A stretch of DNA of 63,199 nt, the filler included, from Collodictyon triciliatum (taxonomy: Eukaryota), in NCBI GenBank assembly GCA_043381765.1. It is 8 parts of 8 records of this genome, joined end to end, with 100 filler letters (N's around TTAATTAATTAA, not from the genome) between each part and the next. Parts side by side here need not be neighbours in the genome. Positions count along the whole stretch, not along the records: positions 51,154 to 60,284 come from JBHJMP010003143.1; 7 more parts are not named here. The stretch is one strand, 5' to 3'. The notes below the pieces were generated by a model. That model searched no databases, had not been told where the DNA came from, and saw only the letters and a program-made list of their open reading frames with translations. Within the stretch, counting starts at the first letter, position 1. Every line of letters starts with the position of its first letter. Below, in pieces: positions 1,174 through 63,199 of the stretch. The position numbers were made by a program, and so were the translations under genes.

Positions 1174-3653
1174 ATGGAGAGTGTCCTGCAACGCCTAGAA
1201 GCTGTCACTGCCCGCCTGGAAGCCGTAAGTTGCCACGCTTGGTGGGAAATATCTCCCATGGAATACAAAACAAAACAAAACAAAACAAAACAAAACAAAA
1301 CAAAACAAAACAAAACAAAACAAAACAAAACAAAACAAAACAAAACAAAACAAAACAAAACAAAACAAAACAAATTAACAAGCGCAAATTTTGTGCCCAG
1401 GCCGCTGCCCAGGGAGGTGCCCCCGCCTCACCCGCCCCGTCGGGCGCCGCCCCAGCAGAAGCCGGAGCCGTCAGCCGATCCGTGAGTGAGTTTGACGCGT
1501 TTGTTGCTGAGTCTGCGCAGCCGTTTGTCGCGCTCTGCAAGAAGATTGGAGGAGACGTTGCGACCCAGGTAAGCGCAAGCCTTCTACGGCCACGCGTGGC
1601 CCTCAAAGAAGAAGAAAAAAAAAAAGAAAAAAGAAAAAAGAAATAAGAAATATGAAAAGAAACAAAAAAACTAAAATGGGGCCGGGCAGGTTGTGTTCGT
1701 GGAGGAAGGGCTGCAGGAGAACCGCAAGCTTGTGGAGCTGGCGTCGCGGGCCAAGAAGCCGGCAGACGCAAAGGCGGTGTGCAGCGGGGTGCAGGGCAAG
1801 ATCGGGGCGGCCAAGGACTTCCGCGAGAAGAACCGGTCGTCGAAGCAGTTCAACCACGTCTCTGCGCTTGCGGAGGGCGCCGGTGCGCTGGGGTGGGTGC
1901 TGATCGAGCCGACGCCCGGGCCGTTTGTGGAGGAGATGCTTGCGTCTGCAGACTTCTACCTCAACAAGATCCTGCGCGAGTTCCGCGGCGTCGACAACAC
2001 ACACGTCGACTGGGTCGCCGCCTTCAAGGCCCTCCTCAAGGGGCTGCAGGCCTACGTCAAGGCCCACCACACCACTGGCCTCGCCTGGAACCCCCGCGGC
2101 GTCGACGCCTCCTCCGCCGCCGCTGCCCCTGCCACTCCTGTCGCCCCCGCTGTCCCTGCCCCTGCCGCCCCCGCTGCCGCCCCCGCCAACCCCATGGCTC
2201 TCTTCAGCCAGCTCAACTCCGGAAACGTCACCTCTGGTACGACCGTCCACTCCTCCTGCTTTTGACCGCCCACTCCTACCTGCTTTCGACCGTCCACTCC
2301 TACCTGCTTTCGACCGTCCACTCCTACCTGCTTTCGACCGCCCACTCCTACCTGCTTTTGACCGCCCACTCCTACCTGCCTTCGACCGTCCACTCCTACC
2401 TGCTTTCGACCGTTTACTCATCTGCCTCCTCCTTCCAGGTCTCCGCAAGGTCACCGACGACATGAAGTCAAAGAACCGCACGGACCGCAGCGCCGTCGTC
2501 CCTGGTACCGTATTTTGCATTTGTCAATCTTGCTATCTGTGTTGCTGACCTGTATTCTCCTCTGCAGCCGCTGCAACTCCGGCCCCAAAGGCCACACCCG
2601 CATTCGGTGCCAAGGCTCCCTCGTACGTCTCTCTTGAGTCCCCGCCCTTCTCTTTCTTACGTTTTTATTTCATTTTATCGCTTTGATTTTTTTTCTATTT
2701 TAACACACATGTATTTTCATTCTCTCTCCCTCTCCTTCTCTTGATGTTCATTTTACTGTCGGGATTAGTGGCCCACCAAAGCTCGAGCTGGACGGAAAGA
2801 AATGGGCCATTGTAAGTTATTCGGCCTACTCTTCCTCCTTTGTTCAGTGTCATTGCAAGCATACCTATTATGTAAACAGCAAGGAATGGTAGCGAGCAGG
2901 CAATCTCTCCCCTCTAATAGTTACCCTTATGCTGGTCTAGGAAAATCAAGTCAATAACCGCACCATCGTCATCGATGATACAAACACCAAGCAAAGCGTC
3001 TACATCTACAACTGCCAGGGCTCTCTGATTGTCATTAAGGGCAAGGTTAACAACATCTGCGTCGGTATGTTTCACGGCATGCGATATGCCCTTTGCCTTG
3101 ATATCCCACGCTTATCCATCTTCGCTCATCGCCAAGATTTCATATCCCAATCCTAACGCAGCCCTGTCCTTACCCCTCACTCTTCCCTATTCGCTTCTCT
3201 AGACAGCTCAAAGAAGACCAGTGTCGTCTTCGACGCTGTTGTCGCCAACTGCGAGGTTGTCAACAGCACCTCCATTGAGATTCAGGTGACAGATAGGGTC
3301 CCCAGCATCGCCATCGACAAGTGCTCTGGTGTCCAACTCTTCCTCTCAGCCAACTCCCTCGATGCTGAGATCATCACCGCCAAATCTGACCAACTCAATG
3401 TTACCATCCCCAAGGGAGAAGACCATCACGTAGGCCCACTGCAGATCTAATATCATCATTATCTCCACCCACAGGCACCTCTGGCCTCCTCACTTGTTGG
3501 GTTTCTCCATGTTTAACACAAAAAAATATATAATTGTTATCGTATGACACCATCGTGTTTCTTTCACACCAGGATGAGATGCCCATCCCTGAGCAGTTCG
3601 TCACTAAAGTCGTCAACGGCAAGCTGGTCACCACCATCAAGGAGCACGTCTAA
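1174..3653 (+). CDS. CAP: Adenylyl cyclase-associated protein (CAP/Srv2), 9 exons
   Basis: N-terminal RLE motif (MESVLQRLEAVTARLEA), helical domain (FYLNKILREF, YVKAHHTTGLAWN), WH2 motif SGLRKVTDDMKSKN, and CARP beta-domain (LELDGKKWAIENQ, KQSVYIYNC, EMPIPEQF) ending TAA at 3651-3653. GT-AG exons join in frame: 1174-1224, 1401-1568, 1690-2236, 2439-2504 and five further exons. Confidence 0.95.
1265..1373. repeat. (AAAAC)n microsatellite in CAP intron 1
   Basis: Directly visible. Confidence 0.95.
2240..2413. repeat. 24-bp minisatellite (CGACCGYCCACTCCTACCTGCTTT, about 7 copies) filling CAP intron 3
   Basis: Visible tandem units between the donor at 2237 and the acceptor at 2438. Confidence 0.9.
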
Positions 3654-7991: not shown

Positions 7992-9153
7992 NNNNNNNNN
8001 NNNNNNNNNNNNNNNNNNNNNNNNNNNNNNNNNNNNNNNNNNNNNNNNNNNNNNNNNNNNNNNNNNNNNNNNNNNNNNNNNNNNNNNNNNNNNNNNNNNN
8101 NNNNNNNNNNNNNNNNNNNNNNNNNNNNNNNNNNNNNNNNNNNNNNNNNNNNNNNNNNNNNNNNNNNNNNNNNNNNNNNNNNNNNNNNNNNNNNNNNNNN
8201 NNNNNNNNNNNNNNNNNNNNNNNNNNNNNNNNNNNNNNNNNNNNNNNNNNNNNNNNNNNNNNNNNNNNNNNNNNNNNNNNNNNNNNNNNNNNNNNNNNNN
8301 NNNNNNNNNNNNNNNNNNNNNNNNNNNNNNNNNNNNNNNNNNNNNNNNNNNNNNNNNNNNNNNNNNNNNNNNNNNNNNNNNNNAACCAATAACCAAAAAA
8401 AAAAAGGAGAGAAAGATAAATATGTCCTTCAGATTTTAGGGCTAGATATGATTCTGACATTGAAGGGAAGAATAAAATGGATAAAAATGAAACCCCACGA
8501 ACCAGACGACTGGTTGGATTCTTTCTTTCGTTTCTTCTGCTCCACAACACGTCCATTTAAGTCTACCGCACATGCACCGAAGCGATACATAGTTGATTAT
8601 CACCATAAGTGAGTGTAAAGTTCACAGACCGAACTTTTATTGAGAAAAGCAACCCATCTACCACGTCGAAGCAACTTCTCCAGAGTGCCAGTTCAAAGAT
8701 GAAGGTATCAACCAATAATTATATTATTACAACTGCGAAAAAAAAAGGTACCTTTATGTTTGCCAGTACGCCGTTTCTTGGGTGGCTCTTTGTACATCGT
8801 TTGGCTTCAGTCTTGATTTTATTTGGGGAGAGCAAGCACAAGGTCATACGCGTCTCCACACGATTCCTCTCTTGTTTTGTTCCGACAACCGTTGGTTTTC
8901 TTGGTTTGTTCACAAAGAAATCATCCAGAGTTTTGAAAAAGGTGAAGTCATGAAAAATCATAAGGGACTCTTTGTTTTTTTTTGTTTTTTGTTCTATGTT
9001 TTGTTGTTTTGTTGTTTTGTTGTTTTGTTGTTTTGTTGTTTTTTTGTTTTTGTTTTTTTTGTTTTTGTTTTTTGTTTTTTGTTTTTTGTTTTTTGTTTTT
9101 TGTTTTTTGTTTTTTGTTTTTTGTTTTTTGTTTTTTGTTTTTTGTTTTTTGTT

Positions 9154-9253
9154 NNNNNNNNNNNNNNNNNNNNNNNNNNNNNNNNNNNNNNNNNNNNTTA
9201 ATTAATTAANNNNNNNNNNNNNNNNNNNNNNNNNNNNNNNNNNNNNNNNNNNN
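9154..9253. other. Artificial contig linker N-TTAATTAATTAA-N; also at about 14088-14187, 23330-23429, 32569-32668, 41821-41920, 51054-51153 and 60286-60384
   Basis: Identical 12-mer with stops in all six frames, embedded in N runs at seven positions. Confidence 0.97.
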
Positions 9254-51153: not shown

Positions 51154-52278
51154 GACGAGTCCAACGCCTCCTTCTGTAGGTGGCTTAATCAGTGTTTTGA
51201 TTTTGTATTGCTGTCTCTTTGTTGTGATGAAGGTGCGGCATATGCTCTCCAGTGTGTCGAGATGCTTTTGAGGCAGGTGAGAGCCCTTCATGTTGTGGAT
51301 GAGGGTCGATAGCATGAGTTGGTTCCATAGCCTCGCTTTTCCAATGTCTGAAAGATGGAATCTTTTCCAAGAGGCGATTATGGACTTGATATTGTTGACC
51401 AGCTTATCCCACTTTTCTGTGCAGCCGCTCCCAAACATTATACCCAGGTATCTGAGTGCGTGGTTTGGGTATTTCCAGTCGATGTTTTCTGGTAGGATTC
51501 CACCATCCTGTAGGCCGAATAGGATACCGTCTGTTTTGTTGAAGTTGATTTTACCTCCGACTGCAAGTGTGTATTCTTGCATGCACTTATTTGCCAGGAT
51601 AGCGCCTTCAGGGGAGCGTAGAATGAAGGCTGTATCGTCGGCATATTGCAGGGGAAATCGGTTGCGGATTTTGTTGTTGTTTCTGAAGTGGATTGCAAGG
51701 CAGTCGGCTACAAAGTTAAAGAGAAGCGGCGCCAGAGGGCACCCTTGGTAGACGCCGCTTTGTCTCTGGATTATGTCGGTAGGGCCGTGTGCAGTCAGAA
51801 CCCTAGTTGCGGCGTTGTCGTGTAGCTTCTTGATTAGTGTGGTAGACTTCGAGCAGAATCCTCGCTTTTGTAGGATGATTTCTAGGGCTTCATGGTTCAC
51901 ATTGTCATATGCTTTCCCAAGGTCGTGGAATATCATGATGCGTGGGTGTTTGGAGACTTGATATTCCATGTGTTCCTTGTTCACAAGCCATATGTTTGTG
52001 TCGATGTCCCTGCCACGCATGAATCCTATTTGGTCCTTTGATATGAGCTTGTCGGCGATATCAGAGATTCGGTTTCTTAGGATTGTGGCAAATATCTTGT
52101 AGTCGTTGTTGAGCAGAGATATCGGGCGCCAGTCTCTGAGGTCAGTTGCATCCTCTTTCTTTGGGATTAGACGCACCATTGCTTCTGTAAAGCCATCCGG
52201 GATATTGTCTGTATCTGCAATCAAGCTGTTTAGTAGTCCCAGGAGGGATGTCTTGATAACTTCTTTCTTTATGTCCAC
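51154..52278 (-). mobile_element. Non-LTR retrotransposon reverse transcriptase (L1/Tx1-like), 5'-truncated, uninterrupted to contig edge
   Basis: LIPKK, WRPISLLNNDYKI, QIGFMRGR, DLGKAYDNVNH, GVYQGCPLAPLLF, QYADD, INFNKT, RYLG, P..EGGVGL. Abrupt switch to AT-rich DNA at about 52280. Confidence 0.95.
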
Positions 52279-53760
52279 GTTAAAATGTTTTATGTGTTTT
52301 CAAATAATTTTTTACTTGAAGAAATACCATATTATTTCTGTCTTGCTTAATCTTTTGATTTCTTTGTACTTCACCATAGTATTTATTCGTTTAGATACTG
52401 ATGTCTGATTATAAGGTTCAAAATAACTTATTTTGTTCAAGATATTATTATTTTTTTGGTCTTGAATCAATTTTTTTGTATTGGCCATAATCTAATGCGT
52501 ATATCCAAACATAACGAATACGCATCGATAATTGAATGATGAGGGACATGATTGAACCTTAAGAAAGATTGTAATCGCATAAGGCATCCGAAATAGTGGT
52601 ACGCTTAAGTGGATGATACCGAATGTGAAAATGGATGTTGTTTACAGTATTACCTAGAAAACCATCGAAAAAATTGGTGAAAATACTCTTATTCCAGATT
52701 ACCTAGCTCGGTTTGTGTGATTCATCATTAGCAGTCGTGCTTGGATAATTATACATTTTAAATGAGTGGCTGTAGAATGTAATTGTTTAGCACAACAAAA
52801 TCGTTCACTTAAATAAAAATGTCCTCTTTTCATATAAAATGTTATTATTATCGGGATATGTAAACCAATTGCTCACAGATGTAGCTAACTTGGGGTATGC
52901 TTCATGGATAATGCTGTTGGTCTGTTACATAATATGTAAGATTAGCAGTGGGTGGCAGTTTGTAACACTGCTAGTTACTGTGTTTTACGCCAGCTTTCTC
53001 TTCATATAAATATTGGCAAATGGCATAGTATTATTATAATCATTTTGTGAATATAGGATAGTGATATGGTTTATAAGAATATTTCATCGAGATATTATGT
53101 CGTGATTGAACAGCTATAAAACTCAAATCATTACTCCGATTAAAATCATAACAAAAAAGTGCAGATGAGCAAAGAAAAATGAGAAAACAAACAATAAAAA
53201 GCAAAAATAAAGACAAAATGTTTCCGACTCTCTGCTCGTCATGTTTGTTTTTCCTTTGTTATGTTGTGCAGAGGAGAATACAGGCAAGGTCATTCATAGA
53301 GTCGTATCATTGCCAGTCTGTCACAGCGGGAGAATATCTTCTGTAAAATTGGACATGACATACAACGCTTAGACAATCACGTCAGCGGTGTTCGACTTCA
53401 GGGGCACAGTCACACAACAAATTCATACATCTACACAAAGACCGAAGCAGATCGACAGCGAAGCCTTTATTACTCAACACATCCACAAAAAGAAGGGTGG
53501 TGGCGAGTTTTCTCAGCACCAGCAAAACACACTTAAGCAGTCTTTTTATCAATATTAATTGATGAGCAGAGATCGCGCGAACGAAAAGTTTTTTTTTTTT
53601 ATTTATTCTTTCATCCAGCCTCTGCGAACAAGCTAGCAGTCATCTGCACTCGTTCGGTTTGGCGGTCATCGGGATAGTACTCACTTGTACTTGTTTTTGT
53701 GGAGGGGGTGGTGTATAAAGATGGATGAATGGGTTGTTTGGTGGGTGGGTAGAAGATCAG

Positions 53761-56700
53761 TCACTGGATTGAACATCTTGAATTCTTCTGTGCACTCACT
53801 ATTTGCTTTTCTGAAAGCTTCGTATGGGGATGGTTTGTGCCATAGACAGTCTCGAATATCGCGTTGGCTTTTTTGTACATATGCAGAGCCCTTTGGTATT
53901 TCTTCTGGTTCATGAGTAGATTGCCCATATTGTAGTATGTATCCCCAACATCAGGATGTATTTCTCCAAACACTTTCAGTCGAATTACCAGTGATTTGTG
54001 GTGGTGTTCAAGAGCTTTGTCATATCTATTAAAAAAATAAGTTAACGAAGTATAAACACTACCAGATAGTCAAATAAAATATACTTTCCAAGGTCATTGC
54101 AAACCACTCCTATGTTATTATATGAAGTAGCAACATCAGGGTGCACTTCTCCATACACCTCGATTGTAATTTCAAGGTCTTTGTGATAGTATTCCAGAGC
54201 TTTATCATTTCTATTAATTATAAGTTAATTAAGCAATGAACATAAATACACAATCAAATAAAAATTACTTTCCAAGGTTATAGTAAACGTTTCCTATGTT
54301 ATTGTAAGAAGTGGAAACATCAGGATGTATCTCTCCAAACACTTTCAATTTGATTTCAACTGATTTGTGGTAGTATTCCAGAGCCTTATCATACCTGTTA
54401 AATTATAAGTTAATGAGAGGGCAAGCGCGAATAAACAACAAATAAAATATACTTTCCAAGGTTATAACAAACGAGTCCTATGTTATTATATGACATCGCA
54501 ACATCAGGGTGGACTTCTCCAAACACTTTCAGTAGGATTTCAAGTGACTTGTGGTAGTATTCCAGTGATTTTTCATATCTATTAAATAATAAGTTAATGA
54601 AGGATAATTATATATACATAGCCAAATAAAATATACTTTCCGAGTTCATCGTAAACGAGTCCAATGTTATTATATGTGGTGGCAACGTCAGTATGTATTT
54701 CTCCACATACTTTCAGTCGAATTTCCAATGATTTGTGGTAGTATTCCAGAGCTTTGTCATGTCTAGTAAATGATAACTTGTTCAAGATATAAATGTAAAT
54801 ACGCAATAAAATAAAACATACTTTCCAAGGCTATAGTAAACCAGTCCCAGAAAATTCAGATTTTTGCTGTTTGAACCTAATAAAAGCCAACCAAAAGTTA
54901 GCAACACACCCATAAAATCCAAATCAACTGACCAAACCCTCATCCGTCTCAACAGAAATGCGGTGCTCAAGAATTGGAATCAAAAAGGAATTCTCTTGGA
55001 TTTTCTGAAAATATTCAACTAACGCAGAGCCAGCAGGATTCAGTTGCTGTTGTACATACCCATTAAGATAAATTCAATATTGATACATGTAATTGAGTTT
55101 TATCACCTTGACCAACTCAATTGAAAGGAAGAATAAAAAAAAATCACCTTGACCAACTCACAATACACAGCTTTATGGTCATAACCGTTCTTATTCAGCT
55201 CTCTCCAGCATCCATAAAACTCGAAGCGATAATTGTCATCCAGCATGCTCACAACAGCCTAAAAAAACTAAATTACAACACATGCCACAGTAATAAAAAT
55301 AAAATACACTATTTAACCTTTTCACTCTTCATAAAATCCACCAGTTTATCATATTCGCTGGAAATCCTCAGATTGTGGCATATTTCGGCAACAATACTCT
55401 TGTCTTCAGTACCAGAGCCGTATTCACCCAGCAGCCACAATCCATATTCACGTGCTTCACTTATGTATGCTTCATCCTTAAAGTATCGCTCTTTGATGGA
55501 TTGTGTCAGCAGCTGGTGAGAGAACGCGTATCTAAGATAAAAATATTGTGACTAGCAATTACGACCATTAAAAAATTATCAATAACAGTATTACCTCCCG
55601 TTCCTCACAAAGAGCGAATCCAGCAAGACAAAAAGAAATGATTTCCTAGAATAAAAAAATACGATTTATCAATAGTGATGCATATAAATCATATGCCAGG
55701 AATCGATATACCAGATTGCATGGTTGATTTGCATATGAGTTTGGTTAAGTCGATGCTCCATGTATTTGTCCAGCTCGTTTTCATCAAGACCGATGCGCGA
55801 CACATAAAGGACACTGATGGACAGACAGACAATATCTTTTCCTAAAATTTATTATGTAAAATCAGTAAAATCATATTAAAAGAACCACTTTATATGTATC
55901 ACAAAACCATATTTCTTTTCCCAGCGGCTCATCACAAGGTCGAACAAATTGACAACTCCCTTTGTCTCCAGCATTTCACGAAGCTCGGTGTCTACTTTTT
56001 CGTACACCCCAAACACACGAAGCTCATCCAGCACAATCCGCAGGTAGAGTGGATGGCCTGGTCTCGTATTCATCATTAAAATATTTATACTAAAATAAAA
56101 TATAAAAATAAATCGAATCAAAAACTATAATCACCAGTATCGTCACAGTCACTCAGTATCATTTCCATCTGTTTCTCGTTCAAGGTCTTGTTGTAGCGCT
56201 TGAAGAACGAGGTGGCTGCTTGTCTGATTCCGGCATCATCAAGCTTTGATACAGGAATGACATCGAGCCCTGCTGACCTGGCAACCTATTCAAAAGCGAT
56301 TGGGTTAATTTAAATGTATTATATCCTCAAAAAAATTAACAAACATCGCATGATTCGTGGGTGTCGATGGTTGATGCGACGATGGAGATGTTCTTTGGTG
56401 TCTTTTTGGGAAGCCATTCAAGGCGATGGACGTGCTTGTTTTGCTCTGTATTGACCAACTGGTTGAATGCATCGATGACCAAGACAACCTGCTTTTTTCT
56501 GTATTGATAGGCTTGTCAGATATTATATTTATTTTAATTGAAACATATTATTGAAATCGACTCGTTTCTTGATGCAAGCTTGAGTATGTGGTCTAGTCCC
56601 TTCTTCAAAGTTTCTTTCCCTACAACAAGACATAAACCAAAATTAGTGCTCATTGAAATTTATTGAATGAAAAGCTATTAAAAATATAAATAAACCGATT

Positions 56701-58360
56701 GTCATTTGACATATAAACCTTCTTCGGAGTCAAGGTTCAGTTCGATTGCTTCATTTTCAACAAGAATGCGAGCTACACGCTCCACCAAACTATAACAAAT
56801 GGTGATTAATACTTATATGACCAATTAAAATATTTAACCTTACTATATTATTCGCTTATTCTTACTTTTCTACGTAGTTACTCAGGTTTGAACATCCGAC
56901 GAAGTGGTAGATGACTACTAGGTTCGACTTTTTGCCCGCATTCAGGTCACGGACCAGCCCGCTCATAATCGTCGATTTGCCAATACCAGACTCTGCTCCA
57001 ACAACGGTAATACCAGAATCGACAACATCGAGTTGTAGCATTGCTTTCTCCTTCAGAATGGCCAATATGGTGTCTCTTCCTTCCAATCCAATCAGTCGAT
57101 GTCGCATAAACTGCTCATGCGCCATGTCCTCAGGATGCTTATGCTGCAAGGTTTTGATATTATATTTGGAGAACCAAAATAATTAAAGTTAACTTAATAT
57201 TTTCTATACTTGAAATTTTTTTGAAACCAAACCTCTTGGTCGGGAAAATCCTTGTCGATTGCTTCCATCAAGTCATCAACCATCATCGAGACGAGCTGCT
57301 GGGGTGTCTTGTATGGCTTGACTTCAAACACATTTCCAATCTTTTCTTTCAATCCATCCTGATTTTCTTTCTGAAATCAAAGCATAAATGAGTTCTCAAA
57401 TTACCGTAGTATCATAAAGCGAAATGGTATAAAGTCTTTTCTGCTTACATCCTTTTCATTGACTGGGCGATATAATGCACGCTCTGCATAGGTTTCAGCA
57501 ACATGGTTGACTGCATGTTCTTCGTCGCGGGAATAGAAGAGTGCACGTCGGGCAACAGGATTTTCTTTCAGAGCACCGTGAACAATCTTTGATATGATTG
57601 ATGTTAGAGACGAGTTGTAAAAATTACAAATATTTGACTATAAGCGGATAAACTGCTTAAATGAACCTCGTAGTCAGTCACACTGAGACCCCTAATCTCC
57701 TTGAGGTATGGAAACTTCAAGTCCGTGTCTGGATGCCATTCAGATGGGTTTTCATGGTTTGGTGACCAGCCATAACGTGAGCCGAGTGTGCATAGAAAGT
57801 ATGGGCATTCCTCGATAGATTCAAGGCAGCTGATAACGACCTATATAATCGTGAAAAATTAAAACTGATACAAAAATGAATGAAAAATAGAAATATCAGA
57901 AAGAACTTGAATAATTCCCACCAATCCGTTTTCAGATATTTCACTGGTCAGTCCCCAGCGCAAGTCGATGAAAACAAGGATGACACCCTTCTTCTTGGCA
58001 AAGTCTTTGAGTCTGCAATAATTTTTTGATTTATCAATAAACCGAGAACATACAAACATGTAATCATGAATTTTTTAATTCAATAAAACGATGTTACTTT
58101 TTTTCGGCATTTGCAAAGAACTCGTCTCTTTCTTTTTGCATGTCTCGAAACGTGGAGGACATGAAGATTCTCAAGACTCTGGAGTCATAGACAACAGTCC
58201 ATCTCTCTTCGCCATCAGAATAAACTGCGGCTGGAATTAAGCCTGTGCGAATTTTCTCATCGACTGGCGCAGATTCTCGTGTTGGTTCCATAAGTTTCTG
58301 GTCTCCAGATTCTCGCTGGTTGGCGGCGTCAGATTGTCTGCTTGGTGATGGCTCAGACAT
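53761..58360 (-). CDS. DUF4062 - NACHT/STAND NTPase - TPR protein (NLR-like, NPHP3/TEP1-type architecture) with C-terminal CaaX box
   Basis: RIFMSSTFRDMQKERD, IDLRWG, LGSRYGW and SVTDYE (DUF4062); Walker A AESGIGKST; YHFVG; Walker B VLVIDAFNQL; GHPLYLRIVLDEL; 42-aa TPRs (HPDVATSYNNIG); ends RCSIQ-TGA. Confidence 0.92.
54026..54822 (-). repeat. Tandem 184-bp cassettes, each a 126-bp TPR exon plus a 58-bp intron
   Basis: Exons 54762-54637, 54578-54453, 54394-54269 and 54210-54085, all phase 2-2. The introns are mutually similar. Confidence 0.92.
55102..55160 (+). mobile_element. 23-bp tail-only LINE insertion with perfect 18-bp TSD that duplicates a splice donor
   Basis: ATCACCTTGACCAACTCA at 55102-55119 and 55143-55160 flanks ATTGAAAGGAAGAATAAAAAAAA. 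Confidence 0.85.
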
Positions 58361-60567: not shown

Positions 60568-62520
60568 ATGGAAGACAATACCACAGGAGGAATTCAAACA
60601 AAAGAGTTTGTGAAGAAGTGTGATGATGTCCAAAGAAAGCAAGCTTGGATTTCCACCAGCCAACAGAATCAAGCGGGACCTAGTCGTGTTAGAAGGGATG
60701 TTAGTTCAGCTTTTGAAGAAGCTGAAGGAGTTGGAGTCGATTTTCTAAAAATCAATAGAAATGAAGAAAAGAACGCCAGAAAAGACCAACCCGCCAACGC
60801 TGCGGTAGATATGCAGGAAATTCAAAAGGTTGAGCTTCGCTTGAGAAAGAAAACGAAGCTAATCGAAAGAAAAAGAACTATACCCTCTGTCCTGATATCA
60901 AATCAGAAGCTGCTCAATATTATGAATCGTTTTTACGAAAATCGAGTTTATGTGATATCGATGGCGTGCCTATACATCATATGCCATACACATGTTTTGT
61001 TTCTGTGTTTTAAGAAATCATTTCTTCCGGACGATTTGTATCCGATTATCCAGATTCTTACACTGTTTAATTTCACGATGCACCTTTCTTTTATGATTAG
61101 ACTGGATATCGCCAGAGAGATTATCATGTCATTCAATTTTTGGTACACATTTTACAGCGCGTTTTCATTTCACTTGTGCTATGTAATACTATGGGGATCC
61201 AAAGTCAACTTCATATGCGCGGCGATGCATTCATTTTCCAACGTCCTTTTTTTAATTTTTTATGATGCACACTCCTCCAAAAACATTTGGATAGTGAAGT
61301 CGATGCTACTTGTAGGGACATTATCTTATTTACCTATTGTTGCAGTTATTCTATTTAGAATAGTAGATTTCGAAACAGAAAAGATTTTCTACTGCTCAAC
61401 AGATGTAGAAATAATTGATATTCGGCTCCAGGCTCTTGACAACCTAACTACTTTTTTAATATACTTACTAAGGATTCTAGTAAATCATATTTTCTTGAAT
61501 AAGTCATCAACAGTCGTTTTTCTTTCTTCGTTTTACGAGTTGAATAGTACGCCTAGGAAACGACCGGACGAGCTAGACAAAAGGAAACAAGAATATAGGT
61601 CGCAATCGTGCCTGTCTCCAGAAAAACTACCACCAGAACCAAATGTTGCCCAATCTACCCTGAATATTGACAACCCAATTGCAGAACCTTGCCTACTTTC
61701 CAAATCTTCTGTGGGGGGATGCGCCGATGCAGTAAACGAGATAGATAATCATGTAGGACCAGACGCAGACCCAAGGACACATATGGTAATCGGTATATTA
61801 CATGACAATGTGGCTTACTTTGACCCTCGGCAGACTATATTTCACCGTGTTATTTGCACCAGAATGAAGAAACTGGCAGCATTGATGCGTTTAAAGTATT
61901 ACAATGTATTTGGAATTGCAATCGGGGTTATTTCTATCTTCTTTAGTATCCCTTTAAGTGCAGGTGTTGAGGTCAATGACGGGTTCTACTATACGGGATG
62001 TATGTGCACAGCTGGAGGGATATTATTCATATCAGTTCAAATAATAACAACATGCAATTATTTTTTGGCATATAATATGTTAATGTCCTTTGATTATTGG
62101 TACGTGATGCACCTCATCATAAAGGTTATAATTACCTCAGGCATACAAAGTTCTTGGGACAGCCGCATGATATTCTGGAGTTATACTGCTGTAGCCTTAA
62201 AATGGTGTGTAATGATAGATACTTTTTCTGCCAAGCACAGAAAATCGGCTTACATATCTTTGTTTGGAGGAATTTGGACGTTGGTTTTAGGTCTCATGTG
62301 TAAATTCAGTACTGGGCGCACATTTTCGCATGACTCTACAGTCGTAATGAGGGGAACACCTATCGCTTCAACAAGAATTACATTATCTACTTCCCTTTTC
62401 TCTGTTAGCCTGTTTGCTTTTCGCTTTCTATGGAGCTTCCAACGAAACAGGCAACGTGTTTTGTTCATGACAGAGAACGCACAGATTTTGGAATTACCTA
62501 ACGACCAATCATACCCATAA
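60568..62520 (+). CDS. Intronless multi-pass membrane protein (about 650 aa) with two internally duplicated TM bundles; function unknown
   Basis: Single long ORF with two hydrophobic blocks sharing motifs (IIMSFNFWY...FYDA and MLMSFDYWY...MIDT), separated by a polar linker. Confidence 0.8.
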   Translation: MEDNTTGGIQTKEFVKKCDDVQRKQAWISTSQQNQAGPSRVRRDVSSAFEEAEGVGVDFLKINRNEEKNARKDQPANAAVDMQEIQKVELRLRKKTKLIERKRTIPSVLISNQKLLNIMNRFYENRVYVISMACLYIICHTHVLFLCFKKSFLPDDLYPIIQILTLFNFTMHLSFMIRLDIAREIIMSFNFWYTFYSAFSFHLCYVILWGSKVNFICAAMHSFSNVLFLIFYDAHSSKNIWIVKSMLLVGTLSYLPIVAVILFRIVDFETEKIFYCSTDVEIIDIRLQALDNLTTFLIYLLRILVNHIFLNKSSTVVFLSSFYELNSTPRKRPDELDKRKQEYRSQSCLSPEKLPPEPNVAQSTLNIDNPIAEPCLLSKSSVGGCADAVNEIDNHVGPDADPRTHMVIGILHDNVAYFDPRQTIFHRVICTRMKKLAALMRLKYYNVFGIAIGVISIFFSIPLSAGVEVNDGFYYTGCMCTAGGILFISVQIITTCNYFLAYNMLMSFDYWYVMHLIIKVIITSGIQSSWDSRMIFWSYTAVALKWCVMIDTFSAKHRKSAYISLFGGIWTLVLGLMCKFSTGRTFSHDSTVVMRGTPIASTRITLSTSLFSVSLFAFRFLWSFQRNRQRVLFMTENAQILELPNDQSYP

Positions 62521-62629: not shown

Positions 62630-63199
62630 CAAGCCAAGCCCTTACTTTCCATTCCACTTATGAGTCGTTGGGCCGAAACTATAGGCATTATAGACCCGCC
62701 GATAGTCAAAAGCTGGAAGCAAGTTCAAATAAGTCAGCTACTCCCGAAACACTGCACTCTACTTCTCAATATCTCCAACAGAGAGCTGTGGATAGGTACG
62801 CGTGTAGTTCATGAAGCAACGACCTCTCCAGAATGCACCATGTGCCATAGTGGAGATGACTATCGAACACACATTTGTGAAGTGCTCTCTTGCTCAAAAA
62901 GTGACAGAATCTACCCACAAGATGCTCTCTGAGATTGATTATGCTCCCAACCGACTCAGCGCGTCTGACATCCTGTTTGGCGCACAATACCAAATGACCC
63001 ACGACTCTAGAATGCTCTGGACAGTCACAAGGGGACATATGCTGTGGTTCTTATGGAGTGTGCGTGCATTCTCTCGCTCCAATGATTCACCCGAACGAGA
63101 AATCAATGTTTACAGGCTTGAAAGCCTCGTGCAATACAGCTTCCTGAACAGCCTGCTGAAACACGCCCGCATTCTCCGCTACTCTGACCGCAAGCGAAG
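62630..63199 (+). mobile_element. Decayed LINE ORF2 C-terminal fragment, same family as 36640-37296
   Basis: NRELWIGTR...CTMCHSGD, then a frameshift into IEHTFVKC; LWFLWSVR; SFLNSLL. Confidence 0.82.

Follow-up and report, generated by a model that had tools for sequence, protein, structure and literature searches.

The stretch of Collodictyon triciliatum DNA analysed here (GenBank assembly GCA_043381765.1; 63,199 nucleotides, made of eight parts joined by filler and referred to throughout as the window) contains on its minus strand a gene with a tripartite layout in one open frame: a DUF4062 domain, a P-loop NTPase and six TPR_12 tetratricopeptide repeats (TPRs). This combination of DUF4062, a NACHT-type P-loop and TPR_12 bears out the NLR-like character given to the gene by a first-pass annotation of the window, which had also singled out, at 54026-54822, an array of similar TPR-encoding exons (here called cassettes) as the mark of a candidate diversifying immune receptor. 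The coding region and the elements of the array, in the order in which they are transcribed, are as follows.

53761..58360, minus strand: whole coding region, from the ATG at 58360 to the TGA ending at 53761; 1034 codons without internal stop, spread over 22 exons that are separated by 21 introns of 58-101 nt (homology-guided model)
54822..54876, minus strand: exon 17, last part of the linker followed by helix A of TPR 1 (…NLNFLGLVYYSLGK), from the gene model; the array delimited by Tandem Repeats Finder begins inside this exon
54763..54821, minus strand: cassette intron 17, 59 nt, phase 2, GT..AG; a variant RNA contig of sequencing run X2 lacks a net 59 nt here
54637..54762, minus strand: cassette exon 1, 126 nt, HDKALEYYHKSLEIRLKVCGEIHTDVATTYNNIGLVYDELGK; Pfam TPR_12, 40.1 bits
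54579..54636, minus strand: cassette intron 18, 58 nt, phase 2, GT..AG, gene model
54453..54578, minus strand: cassette exon 2, 126 nt, gene model
54395..54452, minus strand: cassette intron 19, 58 nt, phase 2, GT..AG, gene model
54269..54394, minus strand: cassette exon 3, 126 nt; Pfam TPR_10, 41.2 bits, and TPR_12, 35.2 bits
54211..54268, minus strand: cassette intron 20, 58 nt, phase 2, GT..AG, gene model
54085..54210, minus strand: cassette exon 4, 126 nt, gene model
54026..54084, minus strand: cassette intron 21, 59 nt, phase 2, GT..AG, gene model
53761..54025, minus strand: terminal exon, with a fifth unit that is more diverged (helix B from TPR 5, helix A from TPR 6), followed by the final helix B, a short tail and the TGA; Pfam TPR_12, 65.1 bits

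The span 54026-54822 corresponds exactly to four exons and five introns, each exon being exactly 126 nt long and the bracketing GT..AG introns measuring 59/58/58/58/59 nt. Tandem Repeats Finder extends the array to 53946-54847 (period 184 bp, 4.9 copies, 75% matches, score 873), and a self-BLAST of the whole window matches the array to a shifted copy of itself at E = 1e-138 and finds no second array of this kind in the rest of the 63 kb. All five introns lie in phase 2 in the full gene model, which makes each cassette phase-symmetric, so that the gain, loss or skipping of any unit preserves the reading frame. This anatomy is directly established: the four phase-symmetric 126-bp exons, the homologous introns of about 58 bp and the 184-bp period described in the first-pass annotation are confirmed, far beyond what chance would produce, and the translated exons reproduce its account of a constant framework (LEYYHK, H[TP]DV, YNNIG) interrupted by variable stretches (EI[R/L/K/T]; [T/M][T/S]YNNIG[L/N/V]V[Y/C][D/Y/N][E/N/D]). 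Its description of one TPR per exon stands as far as length is concerned, with one 126-nt exon per 42-residue unit, but not as to boundaries, because each exon junction falls inside a TPR rather than between repeats, in the turn that follows helix A, where it interrupts the K16 codon (canonical TPR numbering Y4, G8, Y11, A20, Y24). One cassette exon consequently encodes helix B of one repeat, an 8-residue extension and helix A of the next repeat.

The five cassette introns are truly homologous. Their mean pairwise identity is 72% (10 pairs), compared with 54.5% when cassette introns are set against the gene's other 16 introns (80 pairs) and 53% when those 16 are set against one another (120 pairs), from which it follows that exon and intron were copied jointly as a 184-bp unit. 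Similarity is concentrated at the intron ends, which are absent from the other 16 introns: between copies, identity reaches 89% over the initial 14 nt (GTATATTTTATTTG-like) and 62% over the final 20 nt, and it falls to a nearly random 44% in the central part (35% for unrelated introns). Those initial 14 nt are also better kept than the third codon positions of the flanking exons (66%). In 79 related metagenome loci the 42-residue unit recurs at 126/123/120-bp spacing, intronless in all of them, so that the intron belonged to the unit that was copied in the window gene.

The gene model was guided by tblastn with two EukProt transcriptome proteins, P0001 and P0002, and by joints in RNA contigs; a model obtained by naive chaining of introns, in which the start or the chain was wrong, was rejected and replaced by it. 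G+C content is 43% in the exons and 24% in the introns. Logan contigs from four sequencing runs were aligned to the gene, three of the runs (X2, X4 and X5, from three studies) being RNA or presumed RNA. Contig joints match 13 of the first 16 introns (12 directly and intron 5 from one further contig record), and loose ends of X5 contigs fit intron 15; the 15 of 33 joints listed include no ordinary joint of a cassette intron. Splicing of most of the gene is thus directly established, and this is a real gene whose spliced transcripts occur in organisms closely related, at the least, to the source; as the shares of the sequencing runs are all small (at most 0.17), no claim about habitat or strain is drawn from them.

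Tandem repeats are prone to assembly error and the window holds 16 runs of N, both of which could point to a mis-assembled repeat or a pseudogene. None of these runs lies inside the gene, however, the frame stays open over 1034 codons across 21 introns, the gene is covered by spliced RNA contigs, and the units differ from one another by 19-25%, so that they are neither collapsed nor inflated copies of each other. This explanation is therefore close to refuted.

Domain composition of the encoded protein

Upstream of the array, the gene encodes the following elements.

57449..58180, minus strand: DUF4062 domain, exons 1-4, residues about 61-222, with the motifs MSSTFRD (R72), GSRYG (R140) and SVTDYEI (E176); from Pfam and motifs
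57667..57669, minus strand: codon of Glu176, the last of exon 3, equivalent by motif mapping to the catalytic Glu of TEP1, E1008
56135..57143, minus strand: NACHT / NPHP3_N-type P-loop NTPase, exons 6-10; from Pfam fragment matches and relatives
54938..56057, minus strand: helical region between the NTPase and the TPRs, exons 11-16; aligns to P0001 and P0002 by tblastn

The DUF4062 assignment comes from exon 3, which passes the Pfam threshold for this family (PF13271; 26.8 bits, cut-off 24.7), and from exon 1 (19.2 bits); in addition, the corresponding region of the relative P0002 matches the TIR-like chain of TEP1 (11gz_A) at E = 1.3e-17. With an offset of 893 for 11gz_A, R908 is the Arg of STFRD and R976 that of SRYG, which puts E1008 at the second Glu of SVTEME. 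All three residues have their equivalents in the window protein, namely R72, R140 and E176 (SVTDYE), and this conservation of active-site residues is likewise established directly; Glu176 was placed by motif, HMMER's own alignment being shifted by 5 residues at that point. The window protein has STFRD, SRYG and SVTxxE together, as do 8 of 15 relatives. DUF4062 has been described as a TIR-like NADase that acts as a bacterial anti-phage effector, and the NADase activity of TEP1 is reported to need E1008 and to be impaired in R908 and R976 mutants (bioRxiv 10.64898/2026.05.01.722283). Given this precedent and the retained Glu and two Arg, the proposal of the first-pass annotation that DUF4062 acts as the effector is plausible and, by analogy, reasonable; because purified NPHP3, NWD1 and NWD2 are inactive in vitro, it is a role that we infer.

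Within the NTPase, the sequence AESGIGKS (residues 318-325, exon 6, about 56970-56999, minus strand) fits the Walker A P-loop pattern [AG]xxxxGK[ST], and a Walker B-like VVLVID lies at about 56471-56488 (minus strand), where the region of residues 408-417 reads VVLVIDAFNQ. Exons 6 and 9 score below the Pfam cut-offs when taken singly (NACHT, PF05729, 17.9 and 16.5 bits against a gathering threshold of 26.7; NPHP3_N, 18.6 bits on exon 6 against 24.8), because the domain extends across five exons, which were scored one by one. Relatives scored across the whole domain pass NACHT (P0001, 27.4; P0010, 27.5; P0012, 35.4; P0017, 30.4 bits). No match to NB-ARC (PF00931) was found on the window exons or on P0001 and P0002, the matches being to NACHT, NPHP3_N and nSTAND1; in the helical linker, the two exons tested carry no Pfam family.

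These matches raise the alternative of a housekeeping scaffold resembling nephrocystin-3 (NPHP3), a ciliary protein, in which the TPR array would be a fixed protein-binding platform with no part in non-self recognition. Human NPHP3 is reported to carry DUF4062 beside a NACHT ATPase and to be without NADase activity in vitro (bioRxiv 10.64898/2026.05.01.722283), the Atlas clusters nearest to the P-loop exon carry NPHP3_N (score 0.94), the window gene has weak Pfam matches to both NPHP3_N and TPR_NPHP3, and most of the cassette appears to be under purifying selection (see below). The match to TPR_NPHP3, however, reaches only 32.6 bits on the terminal exon (41-78 in relatives, cut-off 100), and NPHP3_N (18.6 bits as above, 27-31 in relatives), NACHT and nSTAND1 score alike near threshold, being so nearly equal that they indicate no specific tie to NPHP3. 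Moreover, the varied N-termini and sensors of the relatives are typical of an expanding STAND family rather than of one conserved orthologue, the catalytic Glu and both Arg are kept, and high internal conservation of repeats is described as enriched in NLR-like proteins and rare in repeat proteins without an ATPase (PMC13449251). We regard the scaffold explanation as rather unlikely.

The putative sensor part consists of six TPR_12 repeats, with units every 42 residues. Against a Pfam cut-off of 30.1, TPR_12 reaches 65.1 bits on the terminal exon, while cassette frames score 40.1 and 35.2 bits, and the terminal exon matches the TPR chains of kinesin light chains KLC1/2 at E = 3e-14. An AlphaFold model of this exon, made with no alignment, is all-helical (H3-22, H27-37, H40-61); its mean pLDDT of 56 is too low for mapping residues, so that only the placement of the helices is quoted, which agrees with an exon boundary after helix A.

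On the TPR numbering scheme, the variable residues of the cassettes fall at the concave-face positions 9, 12, 13 and 31, with position 17 and the first residue of the extension varying too. TPRs at large have been described as hypervariable at positions 2, 5, 9, 12, 13, 33 and 34, which form the concave binding face (Magliery and Regan, PMC1261162). When 302 units from 47 metagenome loci are compared, columns 35, 38, 15 and 39 (positions 9, 12, 31 and 13) vary most, and all four are among the six most variable of the window, an overlap with a chance of about 1.5e-4 by our arithmetic; across all columns, variability in the window and in the 302 units is not significantly correlated (rank correlation rho 0.25, P = 0.12), so that information comes from the overlap of the top columns alone. 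The variable sites thus lie on the binding face; they vary in all TPRs of the class, and a framework held constant around a handful of variable sites characterises the fold class and is by itself no sign of an arms race. As judged from sequence, this exact TPR framework is very widespread: in the intronless metagenome arrays L012, L001 and L004, which hold up to 22 contiguous 42-residue units, the consensus (YDKALEYYHKALEI..KVLGEDHPDVATSYNNIG) is almost that of the window cassettes.

Age, constraint and relatives of the cassettes

Pairs of cassettes are 75-81% identical in nucleotides and 69-79% in amino acids, and the longest exact stretch common to any two units is 24 nt. Between the four cassettes, the synonymous divergence dS is 0.58-0.90 and the overall ratio of nonsynonymous to synonymous divergence (dN/dS) 0.17-0.34. 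Four hypervariable codons, chosen a priori from the class-wide columns, were set against the other 38.

Four class-wide hypervariable codons: dN 0.89, dS 0.26 (very few synonymous sites)
Remaining 38 cassette codons: dN 0.12, dS 0.81
Whole cassette: dN 0.17, dS 0.74

These values indicate that the cassettes are old copies rather than a freshly shuffling array and that most of the cassette is under purifying selection. Measured against the dS of the whole cassette or of the 38 codons (0.74-0.81), the four codons have an omega of about 1.1-1.2, which is about neutral; with four sequences only, free drift and positive selection are inseparable at these sites. The diversifying selection that had been suggested for the array accordingly finds no clear counterpart in the data, the overall ratio being low and the variable codons about neutral rather than clearly positive.

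A search of 1.84 billion representative proteins with the P-loop exon returned 16 at E ≤ 1e-3, one of them a 90%-identical fragment of 87 residues; the source is a eukaryote with short spliceosomal introns, and the nearest relatives come from EukProt transcriptomes, P0001 and P0002 being 54-55% identical to this exon. Nine of the 16 were scanned against Pfam, and TPR_12 follows the NTPase in seven (one of which also has WD40), while four carry DUF4062. Full-length relatives combine DUF4062 with NACHT/nSTAND1/NPHP3_N and vary at both ends, with N-terminal additions such as CH and RRM and with sensors made of TPR or of TPR plus WD40. Several intronless proteins join PF13271, NACHT/NPHP3_N and the same 42-residue TPR unit, for example P0047, which is named from Treponema primitia.

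The collection of paralogous 126-bp exons proposed in the first-pass annotation yielded none, as no paralogous cassette above 75% identity was found in metagenome contigs or protein collections. A protein search with the terminal exon gave four matches from nine candidates, at up to 51% identity and with no close paralogue; one with the cassette alignment gave no close paralogue either among the matches listed (the best 120 of 3187, from 4966 candidates), at up to 73% identity. The 79 metagenome loci were considered as paralogues and rejected, since none has the 184-bp period, their best cassette identity is 75% and they are generic intronless TPR_12 arrays. The 63-kb window holds neither a further copy nor a cassette relic or an antisense cassette, including by tblastn at E ≤ 10.

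One rival to a slowly evolving array is an actively diversifying receptor family, whose paralogues or alleles exchange, gain, lose or skip TPR cassettes and whose binding repertoire is under diversifying selection. The phase-2 symmetry of the five introns would allow any such event, the array is far more uniform than in relatives, and the 89% identity of the intron starts, against 66% at third codon positions, could mark conversion tracts. Psim, computed with the formula of PMC13449251 rather than with T-REKS, is 0.84 for four units, 0.81 for five and 0.72 for six, and so passes the criterion for high internal conservation (HIC; at least 0.70), which in fungi is tied to repeat exchange and length polymorphism in the account given there. 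Contigs of run X2 also suggest rearrangement: in one, 20 letters of the contig's own link a cassette-4-like unit directly with a cassette-1-like one (depth 124), and three others are in-register mosaics of cassette 1 and the terminal unit, cassette 4 and the terminal unit, and cassettes 4 and 2. As the window cassettes share no 31-mer, these are not simple assembly fusions of this gene (k=31). The 273 X2 contigs lying on 4.8 kb fall into three identity classes (66 at 99% or more, 100 at 95-99% and 107 at 90-95%), which suggests several related genes, and 18 of 36 pairs of informative sites in the cassettes are incompatible with a single tree.

Other observations speak against such a family. 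The cassettes are old and under purifying selection overall; the ratio of about 1.1-1.2 at the hypervariable codons is also expected from neutral drift at free surface sites; and a PHI-like clustering test for recombination on nine informative sites is not significant (P = 0.09). The mosaic contigs were aligned at 90% likeness and come from a run whose RNA nature is presumed, and such joints often stem from other organisms or repeats; they are ambiguous and may derive from paralogues, alleles or a related organism. No whole-cassette exon-to-exon skip occurs among the 15 of 33 joints listed; the X2 depth of 2.6 over the bin with cassette 3, against 92-274 in neighbouring bins, is not used as evidence of absence or skipping. 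The window holds no relic of a cassette, unlike Ectocarpus, whose introns are reported to contain inactivated exons (PMC3341825), and the paralogous cassettes that a family would imply were not found above 75% identity in the collections searched. The unequal crossover and exon skipping invoked in the first-pass annotation are not borne out by divergence of this depth, by exact sharing of at most 24 nt or by the joints listed, and we consider an actively diversifying family unlikely.

Surroundings of the gene

A reverse-transcriptase open reading frame (ORF) lies 1.5 kb downstream of the NLR-like gene on the same strand (51106-52299, minus; Pfam RVT_1, 109.9 bits). It is followed by a run of 154 T on the plus strand (50900-51053), that is, a poly(A) on the strand of the element, and the ORF and poly(A) run together indicate a non-LTR retrotransposon. 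A comparable T run occupies 8971-9153, and ORFs resembling the tail of a reverse transcriptase are found at 36403-37338 and 62630-63197. On the other side of the NLR-like gene in the window, an intronless ORF of 639 codons (60601-62520, plus) encodes many hydrophobic segments and has no Pfam family.

Paired runs of 44 N, 12 nt apart, occur at 9154, 14088, 23330, 32569, 41821, 51054 and 60285, with a spacing of about 9.2 kb and no 9.2-kb repeat; they often adjoin microsatellites of AAG/AAC type and have the look of masking, not of biology. G+C-rich stretches (at about 1-2.5 kb and 10-12 kb) and A+T-rich ones take turns along the window. A G+C-rich exon at 1675-2265 (plus) codes for a cyclase-associated protein's N-terminal domain (Pfam CAP_N, 150.6 bits), and an ORF at 18292-19440 (minus), which includes a tandem repeat at 18361-18671, has long polyproline/GMMGG repeats that resemble a formin FH1 region by eye, with no Pfam match.

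Interpretation and comparison with known systems

The reading that we favour, and hold to be probable, is that the locus contains an intact, transcribed STAND (NLR-like) gene whose TPR array arose by duplication of exon plus intron and has since evolved slowly, with no programmed or somatic shuffling. One 126-nt TPR exon was duplicated in tandem together with its 58-nt intron, giving rise to the 184-bp periodicity, and the array would then have changed by point substitution and, over evolutionary time, by units being gained or lost now and again. The differences between the cassettes lie mainly at the concave-face positions, which govern specificity in TPRs at large. In the protein, the TPR array would serve as the sensor, binding of a ligand would release oligomerisation driven by the NTPase, and the DUF4062 domains clustered in this way might hydrolyse NAD+, with cell death or signalling as the output. 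This scheme follows the one proposed for TEP1 and what is shown for a bacterial DUF4062 defence protein, from which we infer it by analogy.

Several observations weigh against this reading. Mean identity within the array is 0.66, as opposed to 0.28-0.34 in five STAND relatives with at least three units, and this uniformity, together with the Psim of 0.84, could reflect more turnover than "slow" implies; the mosaic and re-ordered cassettes in X2 RNA contigs point in the same direction. As for the NTPase, an acidic pair usually follows the Walker B Asp in NACHT proteins; here the Asp is kept and the pair is replaced by Asn-Gln, as it is in P0001 and P0002 (AINQ and AVNQ), so that hydrolysis may be slow or may not take place. 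An immune or cell-death role can be assigned to the window gene only by analogy, and the analogy itself is uneven: among four purified human DUF4062-NACHT proteins, TEP1 alone is reported to have hydrolysed NAD+, NPHP3, NWD1 and NWD2 being inactive in vitro (bioRxiv 10.64898/2026.05.01.722283), and the inactive NPHP3 has the same architecture as the window gene.

A bolder version of the diversification argument would see here a family of NLRs with a TIR-like NADase in a freshwater microbial eukaryote, whose interchangeable, phase-symmetric TPR cassettes are swapped among paralogues or alleles, and perhaps spliced selectively, to give a repertoire of specificities, the conserved intron ends being signals or conversion tracts. 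We think this quite unlikely. If it were true, the brown-algal system would be joined by a second exon-cassette receptor system of independent evolutionary origin, with another NTPase and an enzymatic death effector. Should the cassettes turn over, the locus would offer a compact and tractable second exon-module receptor, with introns of 58 nt in place of the long brown-algal ones and an array tied to DUF4062, whose NADase chemistry has only just been described, and the idea of exon shuffling for non-animal immune repertoires could be tested on a single PCR amplicon of less than 1 kb. As matters stand, the gene places the DUF4062-NACHT-TPR architecture known from bacteria and animals in a microbial eukaryote as well and exemplifies the growth of a TPR array by copying of exon and intron, the exon-cassette layout itself being already known from putative brown-algal immune receptors. 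No published title or abstract among those searched, most subscription journals lying outside the search, points to an exon-cassette TPR array in a DUF4062-NACHT gene.

Among prokaryotes, the DUF4062 defence protein Swarozyc resembles the predicted product of the window gene in its use of a DUF4062 NADase, which acts there as an abortive-infection effector; it has helical stalks, with no TPR mentioned in the paper (bioRxiv 10.64898/2026.05.01.722283). Bacterial DUF4062-STAND-TPR_12 proteins share the same 42-residue TPR unit, which in them is intronless and repeated in up to 22 contiguous copies. In the human proteins TEP1, NWD1, NWD2 and NPHP3, likewise, DUF4062 is described as immediately preceding a NACHT ATPase with its helical arm, after which comes a repeat sensor; NPHP3 shares the TPR sensor with the window gene, while the other three have WD40 sensors (bioRxiv 10.64898/2026.05.01.722283). 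The matches of the window gene to NPHP3-specific Pfam models are under threshold, and the literature searched contains no description of an exon-cassette array in these human proteins.

Both precedents cited in the first-pass annotation, fungal NLRs that shuffle repeats and STAND-TPR receptors of Ectocarpus with exon-encoded repeats, are real (PMC13449251, PMC3341825). Fungal HIC NLRs, such as the NB-ARC plus TPR proteins of Podospora and HNWD, are reported to exchange repeats, and they resemble the window gene in being tripartite, with a TIR-related N-terminus of death type, a Psim of at least 0.70 and few variable positions on the binding face (PMC13449251). Their repeats are described as 80-100% identical and as lying in one exon, in contrast to the window units, each of which has its own exon and which are 69-79% identical in amino acids with a dS of 0.58-0.90; moreover, length polymorphism, repeat exchange and positive selection, all hypothetical in the window gene, are demonstrated in fungi according to that paper.

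The closest counterpart in exon layout is the NB-ARC-TPR family of Ectocarpus, whose TPR domain is reported to be built from 126-nt exons encoding 42 residues, 124 of them in 13 loci (Zambounis et al. 2012, PMC3341825). Both systems couple a STAND NTPase to TPRs made of repeated 126-nt exons, with exon duplication and with variable residues in a constant frame. They differ in the NTPase, which is NB-ARC in Ectocarpus and NACHT/NPHP3_N/nSTAND1-like, with a DUF4062 N-terminus, in the window gene; in number, a single gene with four cassettes standing against the 13 algal loci; and in their introns, which are reported to be long and to hold inactivated TPR exons in Ectocarpus and are here 58-59 nt long and free of such exons by tblastn. 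Finally, the Ectocarpus exon comprises, in the wording of that paper, one TPR plus linker, whereas the exon boundary in the window gene cuts the TPR between its helices; if that wording is exact, the different boundary suggests that the two exon-per-repeat layouts arose independently.

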